A DNA stretch of 64,000 nucleotides from Terrimicrobiaceae bacterium (GCA_044375335.1 JBILMW010000002.1:59-64058); one strand, 5' to 3'. Numbered from the stretch's first letter, positions 12,753-30,550 are shown. The notes: generated by a model not told the origin, from the letters alone. Numbers and translations are program-made.

Positions 12753-13920
12753 AATAAAGGTTGTAATGACCGTTGCTTGCGCTAATGACCTCAGTGGCGC
12801 GTCAATGCGAGATTTAACGCGCGCATCTCCCGTAGTGCATCCTGCTATAGATAACTTATTAGAAGGATTATCAGAATGTCCTGAATTGGATATTGAGGTT
12901 GTATTTGGTAAAAAATATATCAACGCAAATGATTGTCGAAAGGAGGGGAATATTTTATATACACCCGTATTTTATACTCCTCTTCCCTTCCCAGGTATGG
13001 GTTGGTCTTACCTTGCAAGGTATCAGGCAATCAAAAAATATTTAAAGTCTGTTAAGCCAGATATAGTCCATGCACAAGGCACTGAGAGAGAGTCTGGTAT
13101 CGTTGCTGCTTTTTCAAAATCTCCATCATTGCTAACCCTTCATGGAAATTTTCGGGAAATTTCTAAAATTCTTCCATCTCCATTAATAAGCTACAACACT
13201 GTTAATGCTTGGCTCGAATCAATTGCAATCAAAAAGTGCACTTCTATCCTTTGTATTTCAAAATATACAGAAGCATCTGTAAAATCTCTCAACAAAAATA
13301 CTCATCTCTTACCAAACGCTGTCTCCAGTGTTTTTTTTAACGTTGTTAAAAAAACAGTTCCCGGCAGAGTCGTTTGTGTAGCGTCTATTTCAAGAAGAAA
13401 AAATCAAATCTCTCTTTTAAAATCTTGCGATCAAATAGCGGCGCTAATACCAAACTTTAATTTGCATTTTTGGGGAGATTGTAACACTTCCGATCCGTAT
13501 GCTGTAGATTTTTTACAGCAAATTAAAAGTCGAAACTGGGCTCAATATTGCGGAATTTCTTCATCAACGCAGATGCAAAATATTCTTGCCGAGGCCGAGT
13601 TGATGGTGCTGCCATCAATCGAAGATAATTGTCCAGTTGCTTTACTTGAGGCGATGGCTGCAAGTCTACCAATCCTGGCCACATCTGTCGGTGGGATTCC
13701 GGATTTAATTAAAGAAGGGGTGAATGGATTTTTAGTAAAGCCCGCAGAAATGGACAAAATGGCTCAGCATTTTTTCAGTCTTTTGAGTTCGGATTCAATA
13801 GCAACCGAAATGGGATTAAGATCTAGAGAAATAGCTAAAAAATGCTATTCCCCAGAATATATTGCGCAAAAACATCTTAAAATTTATTGTGATCTTGCTG
13901 GCAAGTCGTTTTTTAAATAG
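12733..13920 (+). CDS. GT4 glycosyltransferase
   Basis: IEDNCPVALLEAMAASLPILATSVGGIPDLIKEGVNGFLV signature. Start taken at ATG 12733 (MHSLKNKIKVVM). The 3' end overlaps the convergent gene by 37 nt. Confidence 0.8.
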   Translation: MHSLKNKIKVVMTVACANDLSGASMRDLTRASPVVHPAIDNLLEGLSECPELDIEVVFGKKYINANDCRKEGNILYTPVFYTPLPFPGMGWSYLARYQAIKKYLKSVKPDIVHAQGTERESGIVAAFSKSPSLLTLHGNFREISKILPSPLISYNTVNAWLESIAIKKCTSILCISKYTEASVKSLNKNTHLLPNAVSSVFFNVVKKTVPGRVVCVASISRRKNQISLLKSCDQIAALIPNFNLHFWGDCNTSDPYAVDFLQQIKSRNWAQYCGISSSTQMQNILAEAELMVLPSIEDNCPVALLEAMAASLPILATSVGGIPDLIKEGVNGFLVKPAEMDKMAQHFFSLLSSDSIATEMGLRSREIAKKCYSPEYIAQKHLKIYCDLAGKSFFK

Positions 13921-15404
13921 GCAGATAAGGATCTGTTAGCCAAGTTCAGCAGTGCTAAATTTGAGATGGCTTGAACCATATCATCGCCTAAAGATCCATA
14001 GATAAAAATAAAACCTAAAGGGCTGTAGATAACACCTAAGCCTAAAAATAAAGCCAATGTAAAAAATGGGGTTCCTTTAGATTTTAAAATAATTGAATAG
14101 GCATACTTAGCATTTGCAAAAATTAGTGTGACGAATAATATAAGACCCACCACGCCAACAAACCTAATTGCAGAAACAGGACCGCTATGATAGCCTCCAG
14201 TTACCAAGAAGTAATCCTGAAGGCCTTCGCTGGTATCCATTCTTAAAGCATTCATCGCAGCCCATCCGCGCAACTCAGAGGGGTCGAAGCCGAATCCGTC
14301 ACCCAGCACTTTATTCTTGATGTATCGATCCGTCGTAAGCGCCAAGCGCCACATTTCTAATCGCCAGTCGACTGTTCCCTTAGCATCTACAGTGGCTCTA
14401 TGGTCCCACGATATGGGAATAAAAGAAAGCGCCCTCTGCGCGGCGAGCGGAACTTGTAACCCTGCCGTTTGAACGATGACAATCATGACAATACCTGCGA
14501 CAGCCGCAGCGAACAACGGAAACACCTGCCGGATGCCGCCGCGAATAAAACTGGCGAGGGCTATCGCGAAAAGCCAACCAATCAAGTTGCTTCGGAATCC
14601 TGACAATAAAACGGCGACCAGCGAGGCAAAGAAGCATGCGGAAAGGAAGATGTTTTGGAAGAATATGAGCTTGAAAATGTTCGCATAGGATATTGCCGCC
14701 TTACCGACTTCCACCCCGAAGCCTGCGAGATAGGCGTGCCTCTCGACTCGGCCAGTGTCCACGGGCTCCATCGGATTGGCTTCGCCGCCCGGCATGAATC
14801 CCGAATACAGTGTCGCCAATCGGAATCCCAAGCCTGGTGCAAAATAGCCTACGAGTCCACTGAGAGCGTTTACAACCGATCCCAAACACATGAGAGCGGG
14901 CAAGAGCATTGCAACTCTCGGTTTGATTGTGACATGCTGGAGAACCCAAAATCCGCAACAGGCCAACAGAATGGCAAAATAGGGCCGCCCACCGATGAGG
15001 TTGGATCTGATAAAATCCACACCCACAGGATTTCGAGCGAATACTGTCGCAAGATACAGCAAATTGCAAATCAGCAGCTTGTCACACCAGTTCAGTCGAG
15101 GAAATCTTGGAATGACCTTCAAGGCCTTGAACAGCACAAATAGCCCGAAGCAAAAGGCCACAGACATTTCGGCAATCGATGCCGGCAACCTGCCTCCGCC
15201 AATTGTCCCGCCCAATCCTGAGCAGAGGGGAATGAGCAGCCAGGCATTTTGTTTCAGCCCCAATGCCCCGACCGCAAGCACGGCGAAACCCACATACATT
15301 CCCAGACGGCTGTAATTGTTCTCCGCCACATTCCGTCCCACAACAATGGCAAAGAGCAAGGCTGCGGCCATCACGACCCCAAGAAAAATTTTGTTCTTAT
15401 TCAT
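13884..15404 (-). CDS. O-antigen polymerase/ligase-like polytopic membrane protein (Wzy-like)
   Basis: 506 aa with at least 10 hydrophobic segments and one larger loop. It is the only minus-strand gene in the glycan cluster. Assigned from topology and context; no unambiguous motif seen. Confidence 0.55.
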   Translation of the reverse strand: MNKNKIFLGVVMAAALLFAIVVGRNVAENNYSRLGMYVGFAVLAVGALGLKQNAWLLIPLCSGLGGTIGGGRLPASIAEMSVAFCFGLFVLFKALKVIPRFPRLNWCDKLLICNLLYLATVFARNPVGVDFIRSNLIGGRPYFAILLACCGFWVLQHVTIKPRVAMLLPALMCLGSVVNALSGLVGYFAPGLGFRLATLYSGFMPGGEANPMEPVDTGRVERHAYLAGFGVEVGKAAISYANIFKLIFFQNIFLSACFFASLVAVLLSGFRSNLIGWLFAIALASFIRGGIRQVFPLFAAAVAGIVMIVIVQTAGLQVPLAAQRALSFIPISWDHRATVDAKGTVDWRLEMWRLALTTDRYIKNKVLGDGFGFDPSELRGWAAMNALRMDTSEGLQDYFLVTGGYHSGPVSAIRFVGVVGLILFVTLIFANAKYAYSIILKSKGTPFFTLALFLGLGVIYSPLGFIFIYGSLGDDMVQAISNLALLNLANRSLSAYLKNDLPARSQ

Positions 15405-15551
15405 TCAAAGTGGCGTTATATTAGACCTTTGATAACGGAGGGCAAAAAGAATAGTAGAACTCAGACCAACGTTCAAGAAAAAATCGGAAAAATCTTGGCT
15501 CGAAATACTGTAGCGGCTTTCTATGACTGCCGATTATCAGAAAACATTTTG

Positions 15552-15773
15552 ACCACGGATGACTCGGATGGGCACGGATGAAGAGGAGCGTGGATGCAGT
15601 CGCCGGGCGACTGAGGCGACGAAAAAACAAACCTCCTGCAAGCGAGCTTGCACGAGTTTCGATTTTTCTCTGCCAATCCCACTTTGCGGGATCATCCATG
15701 CCATCCAAGTGATCTGTGAGTAGGCGCACCACTCATTCTTCCCATCCGTGTTTATCAGTGCAATCGGTGGTTA
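15552..15773. repeat. MITE-like repeat, copy 1 (about 222 bp, imperfect terminal inverted repeats ACCACGGATG.../...CATCCGTG..CGGTGGTT)
   Basis: Aligns by eye over its whole length with 16814..17027, for example the shared core GGATGCAGTCGCCGGGCGA...CCTGCAAGCGAGCTTGCACGAGTTTCGATTTTTCTC. The ends are inverted relative to each other. Confidence 0.85.
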
Positions 15774-15810
15774 TAAAAAATTCCCAACAATAATTTTGCC
15801 ATAACTCGTC

Positions 15811-16782
15811 TTGAATCCAAATTTTAGCATCGTTACACCTATCTTCTGCCAACTCGATTGGCTCAGGTTGTGTATCGCCAGCGTGCAGGATCAAGTAGTT
15901 GCCACGCCCTCGACTCTCGACTCTCGACCCTCAACCCTCTCCATCGAGCACATCATCCAAGATGCGGGCACGCCAGGCATCGAAGACTTGGCTCGAGAAC
16001 TTGGTGCTGAGTTTTACCGTGATGGTCAGCTTGTATTTAGTGAGCGGAAAGAGACGAGAGACAAGCGCCGAGAGACAAGCCAACAGCACTCAAAACCCAC
16101 CAATGAGGATCAATCGGTCTACTCTCTCAAAATTTTCAGCGAGAAGGACGCTGGAATGTATGATGCCATTAATCGTGGCCTTGCGCGCTCTGCTGGAGGG
16201 ATTTGTGCATGGCTTAACTCTGACGAGCAATATCTGCCCGAGACCCTTTCCAAAGTGGCGCAGATTTTTCAGCAGCAAACAAAGTTGGATGTCTTGCTTG
16301 GCGATGCGATTTTGCTTAATTCCTCCTTGGAGGCCATTTGCTATAGGCGAATTATGCTTCCCAGCCTTTGGCATACGCGCCTGGACCATTTGCACTCACT
16401 GAGTTGTGCCATGTTCTTTAAAAAGTCTGCCCTACCAAATCCCCCTTTGAATCCTCGCTGGAAGGTTGTTAGTGATGCAGTTTTGATGGAGCATTTTCTG
16501 TTTAGCAGGAAAAACATCTACGCCTGCCAGTTGCCTCTGGCAGCTTATGCCTTCACAGGACAAAATCTTAGTGCAGACAAGAATTGTAAAGAACTGGACC
16601 AATGGTGGGCGGAAACGCGCTGGCCTCCGCGAGCACTTAAGCCTCTCGTTGTCATTCATAACCGCTTCCGACGATTGCTGGCTGGCGCCTATCAAAATTT
16701 CCAACTGAATACAAAAATCCATACTTCTTTTGGATATAAATCCCTAAAAGAAAGCGTTTCAGGCCTATGGCCAGCCCATTGA
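15811..16782 (+). CDS. GT2 glycosyltransferase containing an in-frame heptamer-repeat tract
   Basis: FSIVTPIF...IEHIIQDAGTPG...DAGMYDAINRGLARSAGGICAWLNSDEQYLP is a typical GT2 (WcaA-like) pattern. TTG start. An extra segment, VVATPSTLDSRPSTLS, is encoded by the CTCGACY/CTCAACC repeat. Confidence 0.8.
   Translation: MNPNFSIVTPIFCQLDWLRLCIASVQDQVVATPSTLDSRPSTLSIEHIIQDAGTPGIEDLARELGAEFYRDGQLVFSERKETRDKRRETSQQHSKPTNEDQSVYSLKIFSEKDAGMYDAINRGLARSAGGICAWLNSDEQYLPETLSKVAQIFQQQTKLDVLLGDAILLNSSLEAICYRRIMLPSLWHTRLDHLHSLSCAMFFKKSALPNPPLNPRWKVVSDAVLMEHFLFSRKNIYACQLPLAAYAFTGQNLSADKNCKELDQWWAETRWPPRALKPLVVIHNRFRRLLAGAYQNFQLNTKIHTSFGYKSLKESVSGLWPAH
15909..15936. repeat. heptanucleotide repeat tract inside the GT2 CDS: (CTCGACT)x2 (CTCGACC)x1 (CTCAACC)x1
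   Basis: Read directly. Same units and same order as the 3' end of the 922..1075 array. Confidence 0.95.
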
Positions 16783-16813
16783 TCTTGATGATCTGGAAAT
16801 CCTGAAGAACTGG

Positions 16814-17027
16814 AACCACGGATGGGCACGGATAGAAAAGGGCTTGGATGCAGTCGCCGGGCGAATGGGGCGGAGAAACAACAAACTTCCTGCAAGCGAG
16901 CTTGCACGAGTTTCGATTTTTCTCCGCCAACCCCGCTTTCTGGGGATCATCCATGCCACCCGAGCAATCTACGAGTAGTCTCCCCCCATTCTTCCCATCC
17001 GTGTTAATCCGTGTAATCGGTGGTTAA
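16814..17027. repeat. MITE-like repeat, copy 2 (about 214 bp), direct orientation relative to copy 1
   Basis: Same element as 15552..15773. Begins 32 nt after the GT2 stop and ends 20 nt before the next GT4 start. Confidence 0.85.
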
Positions 17028-17046
17028 ATTCTTCCATCTGTGACTT

Positions 17047-18162
17047 ATGGCTAAACAAGTGATCTCCATCATTGCTGTGGCGCAAACGCCGCCGCCGTTT
17101 CATGGGCAGGCCGTGATGAATCAGCATCTCCTCGAGGGGGAATACTCTGAAATCCAATTCCACCATGTGCGCATGGCTTTTTCGGATGATATCCAGGAGG
17201 TGGGAACCTTTAGGTGGAAGAAGATATTTCATTTGGTGGCAGTTTTTTTTGGCATTGTGGCGGCTCGGGTTCGGACCGGCGCGCAGGTTCTTTACTACCC
17301 TCCGGCAAGTCCGAATATGGTGCCCTTTTTGCGTGATTGCGTGCTACTCATTGGCACGCGCTGGCTTTTTAAGAGAATGGTTTTTCACTTTCACGCCAGT
17401 GGCTTGAAAGAATTCTATAAGCGGCTTCCCTGGCCTCTCCAGAAAGCATTTCATTGGGCTTATGGTCGGCCTGACCTTTCCATTTCGATTTCCAGTTTTG
17501 CGAAAGCTGATGCAGAGTTTCTTGATTCTCATGTCATTTTTGTCATACCAAACGGTATTCCCGAGCCTGACATAGTAAAAAAACTTCATCGCTCATTAGC
17601 TCAAAATGCACCGGAAATTCTTTTTTGCGGAATGCTCAGCAAAGAGAAAGGCGTTGGCATCCTCTTGGAAGCTTGCGCCCACTTAAAAACAAAGGGCCTT
17701 CATTTCCGCTGCACGATTGTAGGCCGTGCAGTTTCGGAGGCAGATCAAAAATTCTTTAATGAATTCATACAATCAAATCAAATGGAGGATATTGTTCAAC
17801 TCGCAGGCCCTCTGCATGGAGACGAAAAGTGGAAAGCTTATTCTTGTGCGGATTTATTCTGTTTCCCCACATTTTACTCAGCAGAAACATTCCCACTAGT
17901 GGCGATTGAAGCCATGCTGTTTGGATTGCCAGTCGTCTCCACGGATTGGCGAGGTCTCCCGGATATCGTGGTGCACGGACAAACCGGCTTCCTTGTCCCT
18001 CCAAAGGATGCCAAATCCATCGCTGAATGCTTGGAAAACCTCATTTTAGATCCAGATTTGCGAGCAGCCATGGGTGCTGCCGGCCGGCGACGCTACGAAA
18101 AGAATTTCACGATTGAAAAATTCCGCAATAGTATAGAGTCTGCTCTTGCTTCGATGGGTTAG
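17047..18162 (+). CDS. GT4 glycosyltransferase
   Basis: YSAETFPLVAIEAMLFGLPVVSTDWRGLPDIVVHGQTGFLVP signature. Confidence 0.85.
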   Translation: MAKQVISIIAVAQTPPPFHGQAVMNQHLLEGEYSEIQFHHVRMAFSDDIQEVGTFRWKKIFHLVAVFFGIVAARVRTGAQVLYYPPASPNMVPFLRDCVLLIGTRWLFKRMVFHFHASGLKEFYKRLPWPLQKAFHWAYGRPDLSISISSFAKADAEFLDSHVIFVIPNGIPEPDIVKKLHRSLAQNAPEILFCGMLSKEKGVGILLEACAHLKTKGLHFRCTIVGRAVSEADQKFFNEFIQSNQMEDIVQLAGPLHGDEKWKAYSCADLFCFPTFYSAETFPLVAIEAMLFGLPVVSTDWRGLPDIVVHGQTGFLVPPKDAKSIAECLENLILDPDLRAAMGAAGRRRYEKNFTIEKFRNSIESALASMG

Positions 18163-18277
18163 GCCAAAAAGCAGAAGAATTTAACCACCGACACGGAAAG
18201 CATAGAGAAACAAAAAGCACAGCAGATAGATGAAATAAATATATAAAATTCTTTCATTATTTCTAAATTAAAATTAT

Positions 18278-19033: not shown

Positions 19034-19496
19034 TTGGCTCGCTCGACGCTCATTCATTGATGAACAGCCACTCCAAAGAACTGCAATCTCCGGTATTCAA
19101 GTCTCTGGTTTCAGGATTCCAGTTTCCCTTCCCCCAATTCCGTTAATTTTGTCAATTTTGTCTAAAAAATCCTGTTTCTCCTGCAAATCCTGTCATCCTG
19201 TCTAAAAAATTTTCTCTCCGTCAATACCATCGATACATGTCAAAATTCAGGTGTATCGAAAAAAAAGCATGAAATTTTTCCGATAGACTCTAAAATAATT
19301 ACATGAATCGAGCGATGAGAAGTAATGTGGCGTCGGACCTTGGGAAAAAATTGCAAAATGTTACTTTCCACTTTCAAATCTCTGTTTTTGTTTGTCCTTC
19401 ACTCGGCGGTCGCAGACCGCTGCTACAGATACCAGTTACCCGTCACGCTCTACGGCTTTTCCTCAATTCCGTAAATTTCGTTAATTCTGTCTAAAA

Positions 19497-20711
19497 ATGT
19501 TCGATTTTCTCATTATAGGCGCCGGGTTTTCCGGTTTAACCATGGCCGAGCGGCTCACGACGCAAATGGGCAAGCGTTGTTTGGTGGTGGACAAGCGCAA
19601 CCATATTGGGGGGAATGCTTATGACCATTATGATTCGCATGGCGTGCTCATCCACACCTATGGGCCGCATTATTTCCGGACGAATTCTCCGAGGATTCGC
19701 GAATACCTCTCACAATTTACGGAGTGGCATGCGGTGGACTACAAAATCCTCTCGCACACCGATGGCCGTTATTGGAATTTTCCCATCAATCTCAATACCT
19801 TCGAGCAACTTATCGGCCGTGCGTCGAAGACCGAAGAGATGGAGGCCTGGCTTGCGGAGAAGCGCATTCCGATAGAAAATCCCACGAATTCCGAGGAGGT
19901 CATCATTTCGCAGGTTGGCTGGGAGCTTTATGAGAAGTTTTTCAAAGGCTACACGCTCAAGCAATGGCGGCGGCATCCGAGAGAGCTGGATGCCAGCGTG
20001 TGCGGGCGCATTCCGATTCGCACGAACCGCGATGACCGCTATCTGATCGACGAGTTCCAGGCTCTCCCGAAGCACGGCTATACCAAGCTCTTTCAGAACA
20101 TGATCCATGCCTGCGGCGACAAGCTGGACCTGCGCTTGAACACCTCCTACCGCGATATTCTTCCGCAAGTGAAATTTAACCACCTCGTCTTCACTGGGCC
20201 GATTGATGAATTCTTCGACTTCCAACTCGGCCGCTTGCCCTACCGATCGCTCCGCTTCGAGGCGGAATCCTTCACGCCTGAAGAGCTCGCTACCAAACAT
20301 TTTGCATCCCCCCATTCCGAATTTCGCATTCCTGCTGGCCACTATCAACCGGCGATGCAAGTCAACTACCCTGGAGAGGAACCATTTACCCGCATTGTCG
20401 AAATCAAGCACGCCACAGGTCAGGATTGCCCGAACACCACGATCGTCCGCGAATACCCGGATGACTTTGGTCCCGGCAAGGAGCCCTACTACCCGATTCC
20501 TGCGCCAGACTCTTCAGCCCTCTACAAAAAATACAAAGAACTTGCCGACCAAGCTTCGCTGAAGCCAGACGCCTATTTGCCAAAAGATTGCGGATGCACC
20601 GGCATTTCCTTCATCGGCCGACTGGCGACTTACCGCTATTACAACATGGACCAAGTCGTCGGTATGGCCCTCAAGGAGTTTGAGGATGTGAGGAAAGATT
20701 CTCAGGGCTGA
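19497..20711 (+). CDS. glf: UDP-galactopyranose mutase
   Basis: MFDFLIIGAGFSGLTMAERL..VVDKRNHIGGNAYD...HTYGPHYFRTN...GRLATYRYYNMDQ, a classical UGM pattern. Confidence 0.9.
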   Translation: MFDFLIIGAGFSGLTMAERLTTQMGKRCLVVDKRNHIGGNAYDHYDSHGVLIHTYGPHYFRTNSPRIREYLSQFTEWHAVDYKILSHTDGRYWNFPINLNTFEQLIGRASKTEEMEAWLAEKRIPIENPTNSEEVIISQVGWELYEKFFKGYTLKQWRRHPRELDASVCGRIPIRTNRDDRYLIDEFQALPKHGYTKLFQNMIHACGDKLDLRLNTSYRDILPQVKFNHLVFTGPIDEFFDFQLGRLPYRSLRFEAESFTPEELATKHFASPHSEFRIPAGHYQPAMQVNYPGEEPFTRIVEIKHATGQDCPNTTIVREYPDDFGPGKEPYYPIPAPDSSALYKKYKELADQASLKPDAYLPKDCGCTGISFIGRLATYRYYNMDQVVGMALKEFEDVRKDSQG

Positions 20712-20789
20712 TCGAATTTCAGCCTTCAAGTGTCAGCTTTCCGTTTTTTCCTCAAAAATTCTATTAATTCTGTTCATTCTGTCTAAAAA

Positions 20790-21818
20790 ATGTTGAAACA
20801 ACTCAAACAAGCCCTTCGCGATATCGGCGTTGGATTTTTTCGGCTCATCGGCTCCGAAATTCGCGACTGCCGAACGGGCAAGCCGCTCGGACGGGGTTTG
20901 ATTTTTTATTGGGGCGGGCGAGTGCATTTGTTGGGCTGCGATTGCGCCGTCGTGCCGCTGCCCATAGCTCAGAAGCGTCTGACCTATTGGAAGCAATTGA
21001 TTGGCTTTACAGCTCATCCGGAGGTAGATTTTCCAAAACAGCACGCAGTTTCGGCTGACGAGCCAGACAAAGTCCTTCTCGTGCTCCTCGATCATCGCGA
21101 TCCGGCATCAGTCAAAAAAACCATTTCTCTTTGGAAAAAAGCGGGTTTTGAGAGCGAGAATGTGCTCTTAGCTTATGGTGGAGGGCGGGATTCCTTCGAC
21201 AAAATCACCCACCCCAACAAATTTCTTCTCACCGAGTCAAGGCATAGAACATCGGACCATCAGCGGGAGAGGCAAGGCTATCGTGAGATTTTTTTACGCG
21301 TCAGTGAATGGCTGCCTAGCCGCTCTTTCACGCACATCCTTTTTCAGGAATACGACCACCTCCCGATGATTGCCGATTTACCTGCACGCATGCTGCGCTG
21401 CCTCGCTGCGGAAAACGCGGACATTCTCGCATACCACTTGGGACGGGTGGATGCCTCTACGAACCCGCATTGGCTGTCCACGGTCTCTGAGACCTACGAC
21501 CAACCGGTAGCGCTATCCATGCTTGGAACCGGCCACTTTTGGACACGCCAGGCTTGGGAGGCCGTTTCAGCGGATGGTGTGCTTGCAAGTTGGTATTTGG
21601 AGCTTGACATTCCCACCACGGCGCATCGCTTGAGCTACAGGATCAGAGAAATTCCATCGCAGGGCAGATTCGTCCAAAATCTGGTCTCGAACCGCCCCTC
21701 GCCTTATGATGCACAAAAACATGGAGCTTGGACACTTCACCCTGTAAAAGACCCCACTACCTTCGCAATCGTAGAAAAGCACTTGAACACTCAACCCGTT
21801 AATTCCAATTGTGGATAG
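20790..21818 (+). CDS. hypothetical protein (342 aa)
   Basis: Long ORF preceded by the same leader motif as glf (CTGTCTAAAAAATG). The 3' end overlaps the exosortase start by 8 nt. No family recognised. Confidence 0.55.
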   Translation: MLKQLKQALRDIGVGFFRLIGSEIRDCRTGKPLGRGLIFYWGGRVHLLGCDCAVVPLPIAQKRLTYWKQLIGFTAHPEVDFPKQHAVSADEPDKVLLVLLDHRDPASVKKTISLWKKAGFESENVLLAYGGGRDSFDKITHPNKFLLTESRHRTSDHQRERQGYREIFLRVSEWLPSRSFTHILFQEYDHLPMIADLPARMLRCLAAENADILAYHLGRVDASTNPHWLSTVSETYDQPVALSMLGTGHFWTRQAWEAVSADGVLASWYLELDIPTTAHRLSYRIREIPSQGRFVQNLVSNRPSPYDAQKHGAWTLHPVKDPTTFAIVEKHLNTQPVNSNCG

Positions 21819-23721: not shown

Positions 23722-23767
23722 AATCCGTCAAAAAACAATACAGGCTGCGCAGGATTTTTCGCGCAAA

Positions 23768-23803
23768 GACCAAATTTTTGGACGATCGTCCAAAAATTTT
23801 GTC
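23768..23803. repeat. 36-bp near-perfect palindrome GACCAAATTTTTGGACGA|TCGTCCAAAAATTTTGTC
   Basis: Read directly; one mismatch between the arms. Core is TTGGACGATCGTCCAA. Confidence 0.9.
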
Positions 23804-23940
23804 AAACGCTCACCGCCTGCGTTCTTGGCCTGGATTCCAAATTCAACCTCCTGCTTTTGCAAGAAAGACACCCCTTCAAAAAAAGTGCTTTCTTCAGACA
23901 TCCTGCACTTCTTTTTCCAGGAGTAACTTATAAACTGCCG

Positions 23941-23978
23941 CGACCAAAAATTTGGACGATCGTCCAAATTTTTGGTCG
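23941..23978. repeat. 38-bp perfect palindrome CGACCAAAAATTTGGACGA|TCGTCCAAATTTTTGGTCG
   Basis: Read directly. Same TTGGACGATCGTCCAA core, 174 bp centre-to-centre from the first copy and 177 nt upstream of the fabG ATG. Confidence 0.9.
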
Positions 23979-24154
23979 TTACGGACATGGATATTCCTGG
24001 TCATTGCGAGTTTGGGCGGCGAGGGGATTCGAAGGTTGAGATCGTTGGCGAAGCGGAGATGCGGCGCCTGAGCGCCGAGCGATGCGTTAGAAAAAATCGG
24101 ATGGAAATTTTTGTTTCCAATCCGCTTCGGCGGTGGTCTTCTGTGCCCTCCAGC

Positions 24155-24907
24155 ATGAGCACAAAACGATTTGAAAATCAGGTCGCCGTCGTCACCGGAG
24201 CAGGTCGCGGCATCGGCGAAGCCATCGCAAAACGCCTCGCCGCCGAAGGCGCGAAAGTCGCCGTCGTCAGCCGCACGGAATCCAACTCCGCACGCACGGC
24301 CGATGCCATCAACGCCGTCACGCCAGGTGCAGCCAAGCCCTACGCGGTGGATGTCGCCGACTTCGATGCCGTGCAGAAGACGGGAGATCAAATCCTCGCC
24401 GACTTCGGCCGTTGCGACATTCTGGTGAACAATGCCGGCATCACCCGCGACACACTCGCCATGCGCATGTCGAGCGACGATTGGGATGTCGTGCTCCAGA
24501 CCAATCTCAAAGGCGCCTTCAACTTCACCCGCGCCATCCTCCGCGCCATGGTCAAGCAACGCTCCGGCCGCATCATCAATATCAGCTCCGTGAGCGGACT
24601 CATGGGACTCGCCGGCCAGGCAAACTACGCCGCCAGCAAAGCCGGCCTCATCGGCATGACGAAGAGCATCGCCCGCGAAATCGCCAGCCGTGGCATCACT
24701 GTCAATGTCGTCGCCCCGGGTTTCATCGAGACCGACATGACCTCCGTGCTCAACGAAGAAGTCCGCAAAGGCGCTCTCTCGCAGATTCCAGTCGCTCGAT
24801 TTGGTGCGACGGATGACATCGCCGCCGCCGTGAGCTTCCTCGCCAGTGCCGAAGCCTCCTACATCAGCGGCCAAGTGCTCGCGGTGGATGGCGGCATGAG
24901 CATGTAA
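24155..24907 (+). CDS. fabG: 3-oxoacyl-[acyl-carrier-protein] reductase
   Basis: VAVVTGAGRGIGEAIA, NNAGITRD, YAASKAG and ITVNVVAPGFIETDMT. Start is ATG 24155 (MSTKRF), inside the longer ORF-track ORF. Confidence 0.85.
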   Translation: MSTKRFENQVAVVTGAGRGIGEAIAKRLAAEGAKVAVVSRTESNSARTADAINAVTPGAAKPYAVDVADFDAVQKTGDQILADFGRCDILVNNAGITRDTLAMRMSSDDWDVVLQTNLKGAFNFTRAILRAMVKQRSGRIINISSVSGLMGLAGQANYAASKAGLIGMTKSIAREIASRGITVNVVAPGFIETDMTSVLNEEVRKGALSQIPVARFGATDDIAAAVSFLASAEASYISGQVLAVDGGMSM

Positions 24908-24923
24908 AAAGCAGCCTCCCTCC

Positions 24924-25391
24924 ATGACCATCTACTTCCTGCGCCACGCTGAAGCCGAGGATCTGGCCGAGTCGGACTTCGACCGCAAACTCACGCCCAA
25001 AGGGCTGCAGCAGGCGGCGAAGGTTGGAAAATTCTGCGCCAATCATGGGCTCAATCCAGCTGTTATTTTGAGCAGTCCCGTGACCCGCGCCAGGCAAACA
25101 GCGGAGATCGTCGCTGAAACGCTCGGGCGCGAAGTCGCCATTGAAAGCTGGCTCGCCTGCGGGATGGAAACTTCCACCCTGCTTGCACGCCTCGCGCCCC
25201 ACGCTGCCAGCGACTCTGTCTTGCTCGTCGGTCACGAACCCGATTTCAGCACAACCATCGGCGAGCTTCTGGGAACTCCCGAACCAGCCGCCGTGCTGGT
25301 CAAAAAAGCCTCCCTCATCGCCATCGACGCCCCGTGGCTTGAGCCCGGCGCCGGCCAACTCCAGTTCTCCATTCCCTGCCGCCTGATGTGA
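24924..25391 (+). CDS. sixA: phosphohistidine phosphatase SixA-like (histidine phosphatase superfamily)
   Basis: 155 aa, with MTIYFLRHAEAE (RHG-type motif) and LLVGHEPD. Confidence 0.7.
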   Translation: MTIYFLRHAEAEDLAESDFDRKLTPKGLQQAAKVGKFCANHGLNPAVILSSPVTRARQTAEIVAETLGREVAIESWLACGMETSTLLARLAPHAASDSVLLVGHEPDFSTTIGELLGTPEPAAVLVKKASLIAIDAPWLEPGAGQLQFSIPCRLM

Positions 25392-26614: not shown

Positions 26615-26750
26615 TGGGAGGGGCATCGTCTCGCATGTCCCAAGTTTCAGCCGCGAAGCGGCGTTCGGCGTAATGGGAACGGGACGGCGTGGTAGTAGAG
26701 CGGTTCAGTCTTGGGTCAAGCCGGCGGTTGACCCTCCAAAAGTCGGCGCG
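26615..26750. repeat. roughly 135-bp structured intergenic repeat, copy A
   Basis: Aligns with 30398..30550. Shared blocks: TGGGAGGG, CATCGTC..TCGCATG, TTTCAGCCGC.AAGCGGCG, GGCGTAATGGGAACG.GACGG and AGCGGTTCAGTCTTGGGTCAAGCCGG.GGTTGACCCTCCAA. Contains the hairpin GGGTCAA/TTGACCC. Confidence 0.85.
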
Positions 26751-30397: not shown

Positions 30398-30550
30398 TGG
30401 GAGGGTTCATCGTCCTCGCATGACCCAAATTTCAGCCGCAAAGCGGCGTTTTTGTTTGCACGGCGTAATGGGAACGAGACGGTGCGATAACGAAGCGGTT
30501 CAGTCTTGGGTCAAGCCGGAGGTTGACCCTCCAAGGGGTTGCGCGAAGCG
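30398..30550. repeat. roughly 135-150-bp structured intergenic repeat, copy B
   Basis: Same element and same orientation as 26615..26750, with small indels. Confidence 0.85.

Follow-up and report, generated by a model that had tools for sequence, protein, structure and literature searches.

The element described here resembles several known families of bacterial intergenic repeats and structured RNAs. The Correia/NEMIS elements of Neisseria, the pneumococcal BOX and RUP repeats, and the enterobacterial repetitive intergenic consensus (ERIC) sequences are 100-250 bp long, non-coding, intergenic and co-transcribed, with terminal inverted repeats (TIRs) and hairpins. Repeats of this type can affect mRNA processing or stability and generate spurious open reading frames (ORFs). 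Repetitive extragenic palindromic (REP) sequences and bacterial interspersed mosaic elements (BIMEs) are G+C-rich palindromes of 20-40 nt that are present in hundreds of copies and go with a RAYT transposase. In Bacillales, the eps-associated RNA (EAR) is an intergenic structured RNA of the eps operon that promotes processive antitermination. The element in question, termed E, is a hairpin-rich sequence of ~230 bp with two direct copies (A and B) in 64 kb of DNA from a lake-water metagenome, assigned to a Terrimicrobiaceae bacterium (GCA_044375335.1, JBILMW010000002.1:59-64058; the whole stretch is referred to as the window). With a probability of roughly one half, E is a conserved, co-transcribed intercistronic structured element of an exosortase-linked polysaccharide operon in freshwater Terrimicrobiaceae (Verrucomicrobiota), and not an active MITE (miniature inverted-repeat transposable element).

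The Correia, BOX, RUP and ERIC repeats are scattered over the genome in either orientation and number tens to hundreds, whereas E was found one to three times per genome, in one operon and co-oriented. Correia elements duplicate a TA target; E has no clear target-site duplication (TSD), and across species the conservation of its core exceeds that of neutral sites. Unlike REP and BIME sequences, E is ~230 bp long, low in copy number and without a RAYT, and only its arms of ~35 nt are widely dispersed. E shares with EAR (~100-200 nt) a structured, non-coding nature and a sense, intergenic position within an exopolysaccharide (EPS) operon, but it has no Rfam match and occurs two or three times, where EAR occurs once per operon. 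Integron attC sites such as the Vibrio VCRs are likewise imperfect palindromic repeats in one orientation with single genes between them, and here too toxin-antitoxin and small accessory genes are among the 'cassettes'. In contrast to attC, E is about twice as long and has a conserved, multi-hairpin core, its enclosed glycosyltransferase (GT) genes are core and syntenic, and no IntI/attI/Pc platform was seen in the window or the fetched loci. The attC core sites (RYYYAAC/GTTRRRY) were matched only by the right end of copy B (GTTAAAT), and not by that of copy A (GTTATAA) or by either left end. Neither these elements nor GxxExxY cassettes were described in the literature searched.

As reported in a first-pass annotation of the window, two direct copies of one element flank exactly one gene, a GT2 glycosyltransferase (15811-16782, plus strand). 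The copies were 85.3% identical over 211 nt in direct orientation (15565-15773 against 16819-17026; blastn E 2.6e-62). Copy A, supported by nhmmer (9.6e-82), blastn and fold, occupies 15546-15788 on the plus strand, between a divergent Wzy-like gene and GT2. Copy B occupies 16803-17033 on the plus strand (nhmmer 7.1e-78), in the spacer between GT2 and a GT4 glycosyltransferase gene. A 36-nt block at the apex of the long central hairpin is fully identical between the two (15635-15670 and 16889-16924, both plus), where the chance expectation is none. It contains the previously annotated internal palindrome, TGCAAGCGAGCTTGCA, which was found in both copies (15637-15652 and 16891-16906).

The imperfect TIRs were also borne out: 15547-15580 and 15743-15776 are 34 nt long and 71% complementary, and this pairing is kept in nine copies. 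Each arm is built of about three tandem words of ~10 nt, CACGGATG on the left and CATCCGTG on the right, according to Tandem Repeats Finder (TRF). In copy A, read on the plus strand, the left arm (~15552-15581) holds three CACGGATG-type words, the core (15582-15735) a closing stem and three hairpins, and the right arm (15743-15773) three ATCNGTG words that end in GGTGGTTA. The left arm of copy B has lost one word relative to copy A and keeps two; its right arm stops 20 nt upstream of the GT4 ATG. Between the GT2 stop and copy B lies a 17-nt tandem duplication (16782-16815, plus; ATCTTGATGATCTGGAA / ATCCTGAAGAACTGGAA; TRF). In alignments with related loci (L numbers), it accompanies the element in L009, L010 and L013 and is missing at empty sites. 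The right arm ends 7-38 nt ahead of the start codon of GT4, GT2 or PDDEXK_3; immediately 3' of it, the next gene's start region is A-rich and lacks a Shine-Dalgarno sequence. No sigma-70 promoter or intrinsic terminator consensus was found inside the element. No reading frame was conserved among nine copies, so that the ORFs called over the element are spurious, as annotated; a small-protein reading was discarded because the frames differ between copies.

A truncated third copy follows GT4. The solo end-like fragment annotated at 18181-18197 is real; its identity was revised. The segment 18174-18197 (plus; GAAGAATTTAACCACCGACACGGA) is an 18-nt perfect inverted match to 17017-17034. Read on the plus strand, it matches the element's left end in direct orientation, the GAAGAA ahead of copy B included. 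It is therefore what is left of a third co-oriented copy, a left-arm stub, and makes, with copy B's right arm, an inverted pair of ~25 bp around the GT4 cistron. The sequence GAAGAATTTAACCAC likewise follows GT4 in L010 and L009, and the full element follows GT4 in L022 (6381-6625). In Bin_73_16 the end of contig L010 lies in the left arm and shares 20 nt with the beginning of L014, which opens with a full copy. The element is a serial intercistronic unit, arranged E-GT2-E-GT4-e in the window.

A profile of nine copies found only A and B in the 64-kb window. In the source run (X1), searched at at least 80% likeness, the element interior was represented by contigs of A (11.3x), contigs of B (12.8x) and one minor variant (4.1x/2.7x), and by no others. 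The ~35-nt arms matched many unrelated contigs. A first scan of genome contigs with a 21-nt core gave no match. A 23-nt motif that is invariant in most copies, searched over 185,579 species genomes, was found only in three Verrucomicrobia/Terrimicrobiaceae metagenome-assembled genomes (MAGs), with one to three copies each, and in one chance match. The chance match, a Gemmatimonadota locus (L011), is one of five loci from the second genome scan and reached just E=0.59 with the element profile; an unrelated, low-GC match from the metagenome scan (L001) was likewise set aside as chance. No viral contig matched the element. Every copy with known context adjoins GT2/GT4 homologues in an exosortase/EPS cluster, and all full copies are co-oriented with the genes. 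The ubiquitous intergenic repeat allowed for in the first-pass annotation is not what was found: in the window and the related MAGs, the copies are low in number and confined to the GT2/GT4 locus.

The annotated MITE-like character was retained in part. E has TIR-like ends, a size of ~230 bp and no coding capacity. Many dispersed copies were not seen in the window, X1 or the related MAGs, and neither a cognate transposase nor any transposase or integrase domain was seen in the major ORFs of the window. No direct repeat was common to the element flanks; the TTAA at the termini is a palindrome and belongs to the TIR itself. What distinguishes a filled GT2/GT4 junction from an empty one is a 44-nt spacer (which includes the 17-nt tandem duplication), together with the element and a 20-nt leader. 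The limits of this difference lie elsewhere than at the TIR ends, and no unambiguous target duplication was seen.

GT2 had 1723 homologues (non-self sequences 66-87% identical among the matches listed), and eleven distinct related GT2 contexts were read. In the syntenic L012 the order is Wzy(-)-E-GT2-GT4, with an orthologue of copy A upstream of GT2; the GT2 stop overlaps the GT4 start and copy B is missing. L009 reads PIN toxin-antitoxin (TA)-GT2-E(left half)-GT4-stub, the right half of E being replaced, and L022 reads PIN TA-GT2-E-E(half)-GT4-E-AAA_14. L010/L015/L014 carry GT2-E-PDDEXK_3-E-GT4-E-AAA_14. L013 carries a right-arm remnant of copy A, then GT2-E-(decayed PDDEXK_3)-E-GT4-methyltransferase-E-AAA_14. 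Positional orthologues of copy B were present in L009, L010 (L010b), L013 (L013b) and L022. Only partial or inverted remnants were found in L004, L007/L008 and L018/L019, and no element in L005/L006, L016/L017 and L020/L021. In L010 (1477-1844) and L013 (2410-2719) a PD-(D/E)XK_3 (GxxExxY) gene lies exactly between two direct copies of E; it is intact in L010 (PF13366, 1.9e-35), where 7 nt separate the right arm from the ATG that follows it, and frameshifted in L013. GT2 itself was present in 11 of 11 contexts, with or without the element, and the copies therefore do not mark its acquisition, contrary to a suggestion of the first-pass annotation.

Copies A and B were the least similar pair of copies (83%), and copies did not group by genome. 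The positional orthologues of copy B in the window, L010b and L013b were 87-93% identical. Since copies at the same position are closer than A is to B, sequence comparison identifies A and B as old paralogues, not recent insertions. The pair and GT2 have existed side by side from a time before the species splits. Along GT2-E-GT4, nucleotide identity forms a mosaic, at 85-95% over 16132-17370 and 45-65% in the middle of GT4. As this mosaicism confounds a whole-gene comparison, the neutral comparison was restricted to the high-identity coding blocks adjoining copy B. Between the window and L009/L010/L013, 4-fold sites in these flanking blocks were 59-74% identical; other intergenic spacers were 68-76% identical between the window and relatives, and copy B was 87-89% identical to L010b/L013b. 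Restricted in this way, the comparison still favours constraint, less dramatically than the whole-gene one. Overall, E was 85-93% identical, core columns were 92-97% conserved over nine copies from four genomes, and the element diverged ~2-3 times more slowly than neutral sites. The identity of orthologues (87-93%), set against that of 4-fold sites and spacers, indicates that the element is under constraint.

Single copies folded far better than shuffled sequences on both strands (z = -5.2 and -5.0). In the consensus fold the arms close a core of a closing stem and three hairpins, with 64 pairs and 94% of cells paired. Rfam gave only tRNA over the window at the gathering threshold and no credible match over 15400-17100 at E<=10. 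No RNA run with this exact strain was found, and the metatranscriptome contigs come from close relatives. All four lake metatranscriptomes contained contigs with copy-B-type sequence. In the first 20 kb of the window, at 80% likeness, copy B was the only site matched in all four RNA runs; the equally conserved GT2 block 16132-16741 had no RNA contigs. At L013 the RNA contigs covered only the element copies, some entering from the 3' end of GT2 and some extending into GT4. These contigs suggest that transcription of the operon includes the element and that its RNA is relatively abundant or stable. For the transcribed RNA considered in the first-pass annotation, the RNA contigs in four of four runs and the stable fold count in favour; the covariation is not significant.

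In the intercistronic reading, E would be transcribed with its flanking genes and would act in cis on the operon as RNA. Co-oriented copies fill successive spacers, before GT2 (A), between GT2 and GT4 (B) and, as a stub, after GT4; in relatives, full copies stand after GT4 or after the methyltransferase gene. The paired arms, closing the three-hairpin core, could give a stable fold that insulates or processes neighbouring cistrons, protects mRNA ends or forms a long leader; either strand may be the acting one. The arms are made of CACGGAT/ATCCGTG word arrays, a common intergenic vocabulary of these bacteria; the core, ~150 nt of conserved non-coding sequence with no nuclease gene, is specific to this EPS locus. 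Serial direct copies provide ~210 bp of homology as a by-product, with recombination as a side effect. In the course of evolution this homology has gone along with rearrangements at the element, namely the PD-(D/E)XK_3 gene between two copies, the PIN TA in place of the left part of copy A, and the loss or truncation of copies; it could also lead to deletion of GT2.

Several results weigh against this reading. Covariation was not significant: there were two compensatory pairs, 63 of 500 shuffles reached the observed score, and the copies are too similar. The antisense strand folded slightly better in nine of nine copies, and the RNA contigs are strandless; an assignment of strand by folding energy accordingly failed. 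RNA contig depth was 2-2.6, and DNA carry-over, multi-copy pooling and cross-strain pooling could inflate the signal. The element is missing in L005, L016 and L020, and is dispensable in some lineages. Owing to regional mosaicism, recent exchange of the block 16132-17370 could explain part of the high identity.

The direct copies could recombine, as the first-pass annotation proposed for RecA-mediated deletion or duplication of the enclosed gene, and one contig lacks the 1.26-kb segment between them. In this contig, from run X3 (603 nt, depth 3.5), position 15633 is followed directly by 16888, so that 1254 bp are missing, and 37 nt fit both sides. The joint is the product expected from a crossover in the identical 36-nt core. 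The joined form contains no 31-mer that is absent from the intact locus, and the contig may therefore be an assembly artefact of the k=31 graph; coverage in X3 was patchy (0-5x). GT2 pieces identical to the window were present in X3 and six other runs, no GT2-less contig carrying an identical Wzy or GT4 protein is on record, and runs X5-X12 were too shallow to bear on the joined form. We hold the chance that the X3 deletion of GT2 is real to be roughly one in three. This leaves the X3 contig ambiguous.

The alternative that comes closest, though an unlikely one, is that E is mobile but non-autonomous, either MITE-like or derived, without the gene, from word-armed GxxExxY/PD-(D/E)XK cassettes; it would have inserted in several spacers and would owe its high identity to relatively recent spread or exchange and not to function. 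Its small, non-coding form, its TIRs of tandem subterminal words, and its presence or absence among close relatives at three sites would be expected of such an element, as would the partial or inverted copies in L004, L007 and L018, the arms on many unrelated contigs and the intact PDDEXK_3 gene between two copies in L010. Set against these are the one to three copies per genome at one locus, the single orientation of all full copies, and filled and empty sites that differ elsewhere than at the TIR boundaries and without an unambiguous TSD. Positional orthologues with common flanks predate the species splits, yet are 87-93% identical, and neither a transposase in the window nor a viral match was found. 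Less probable than mobility, and than any other explanation considered here, is that E has no function today and is the decaying remainder of local duplications, with its apparent conservation and RNA signal arising from recent block exchange between strains and from read-through transcription. The mosaic identity of GT2-E-GT4, with the block 16132-17370 at 85-95% identity to relatives, points that way, as do the absence or truncation of E in several lineages and the lack of covariation. Within that same block, however, 4-fold sites were 59-74% identical compared with 87-89% for E, and copy A and copies elsewhere are equally conserved.

A DNA-level role was judged somewhat more doubtful than mobility. 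Here E would be a recombination or docking site that delimits exchangeable cassettes, as in attC or Campbell-type integration; E-gene-E arrays would be the products of such events, and GT2 could be looped out between A and B. The arrays do hold varied cargo (GT2 in the window, PDDEXK_3 intact in L010 and decayed in L013), accessory genes (PIN TA, AAA_14/DUF4143) stand at E boundaries, the X3 contig links the left of A to the right of B in the 36-nt core, and the 10-bp periodic words resemble arrayed protein-binding sites. Against it, no integrase or recombinase lies nearby and RYYYAAC/GTTRRRY core sites are not consistently present; GT2 is a core gene found in every relative with or without E, and has not been lost in the time, reaching back beyond the species splits, that the A/B pair has existed. 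The X3 joint is possibly a k=31 graph artefact at 2-4x, and GT2 pieces persist in that run. A more speculative proposal, to which we give still less weight, joins arm pairing with nuclease-gene insertion: E would be an undescribed class of cis-acting RNA, or a nuclease-recognised boundary element, that splits Verrucomicrobia polysaccharide operons into separately processed, exchangeable cistrons. The word arms would pair across whole genes (~25 bp around GT4) to give RNase III-type processing stems, and the same arms may be insertion sites of GxxExxY PD-(D/E)XK nuclease genes. The recurrence of E-gene-E with PD-(D/E)XK_3 cargo keeps this proposal alive at low probability; if true, it would link a widespread orphan nuclease family to cassette-like diversification of surface polysaccharides.

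A polysaccharide cluster with an exosortase takes up the first ~26.6 kb of the window. Its genes encode WecG, GT2, a Wzx-type flippase, methyltransferases, several GT4 enzymes, a Wzy-like polymerase, UDP-galactopyranose mutase and the exosortase. The GT2 gene between copies A and B matched Pfam PF00535 (1.1e-7), the GT4 gene downstream of copy B (17047-18162, plus) PF00534 (1.2e-35), and the Wzy-like polymerase gene (13884-15404, minus; divergent from GT2 and syntenic in L012) weakly PF04932. Copy A lies in the upstream region common to the Wzy-like gene and GT2. An independent Joint Genome Institute (JGI) assembly has a 3348-bp contig with the same order, Wzy'-GT2-GT4-methyltransferase'. In GT4, the middle (17371-17910) was 63-64% identical at the nucleotide level to L009/L010/L013 and 80% to L012, and the ends were 83-91% identical to L009/L010/L013. 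GT4 is a mosaic gene with internal recombination breakpoints (~17370 and ~17910). A proposal that discordant GT2 and GT4 phylogenies imply crossovers at E was dropped, as 4-fold sites were broadly concordant and the mosaic breakpoints lie inside GT4.

GT2 contains in-frame heptamer tracts at 15907-15939 and 16050-16076, a CTCGACC heptamer (4.7 copies) and a second heptamer tract being in frame within a loop. The heptamer-containing loop varies in length among GT2 homologues of 309-361 aa. In L013 the word array TCCGTGTCCTCTGTGCGCTCTGTGGTTAAT (1395-1440) falls in this variable loop of the GT2 homologue and is read in frame as HFRSVSSVRSVVNS; unrelated RNA contigs matched this 34-nt stretch. CTCGACC also forms an array of 22.6 copies upstream of the WecG-type gene (922-1079). 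Triplets of the 9-nt word AATTNNGTN, followed by CTAAAAA, occur at 19129-19168, 19458-19497 and 20757-20782, and abut the ATG of glf (19497) and of an ORF at 20790. By eye, no Shine-Dalgarno sequence was seen at these starts, and the words are placed as the element's right arm is ahead of GT4 and GT2. At the 'TTTTGACCAC' boundary in L012 (5400-5440) and L013 (4125-4160) a different word type, CACAGAG x3, was found. The arms appear to belong to an interchangeable word vocabulary.

What remains of an AAA_14/DUF4143 gene, its 5' region and start, occupies 19240-19494; the gene is intact at that place in L014 (610-1740) and L013 (5874-7025), and the 63-aa ORF at 19303-19494 is probably its stub. 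Between 20 and 40 kb, one region (24190-24911) was covered by RNA contigs comparably to copy B, with contigs of ~290-415 nt each from X19, X20 and X21; a piece from X22 lay at 25071-25250. It is an unannotated ORF region by the exosortase gene (23894-24931 minus or 23972-24907 plus), without a Pfam match, and may encode a highly expressed exosortase substrate. A near-perfect palindrome of ~38-42 nt, GACCAAAAATTTGGACGATCGTCCAAATTTTTGGTC, occurs twice just downstream of the exosortase region, 138 nt apart (23762-23803 and 23942-23983). An unrelated structured direct repeat of ~135 bp (26615-26750 and 30398-30550; mean column identity 85%, with long identical blocks) brackets a uxaC-uxaE-araC module, so that repeat-bracketed gene modules occur twice in the window.

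Few regions of bacterial genomes are as variable and as important ecologically as surface-polysaccharide loci, which have roles in escape from phages and grazers. Abundant freshwater Verrucomicrobia are, to our knowledge, uncultured, and their gene regulation is essentially unknown. The MITE-like architecture of E need not mean mobility, because E behaves like a part of an operon that is constrained and specific to its locus. As a conserved, transcribed, multi-hairpin repeat between glycosyltransferase genes, E would be a candidate new regulatory RNA or processing signal in these bacteria, and it would also be a ready substrate for gene loss, gene gain and cassette insertion in their polysaccharide loci.

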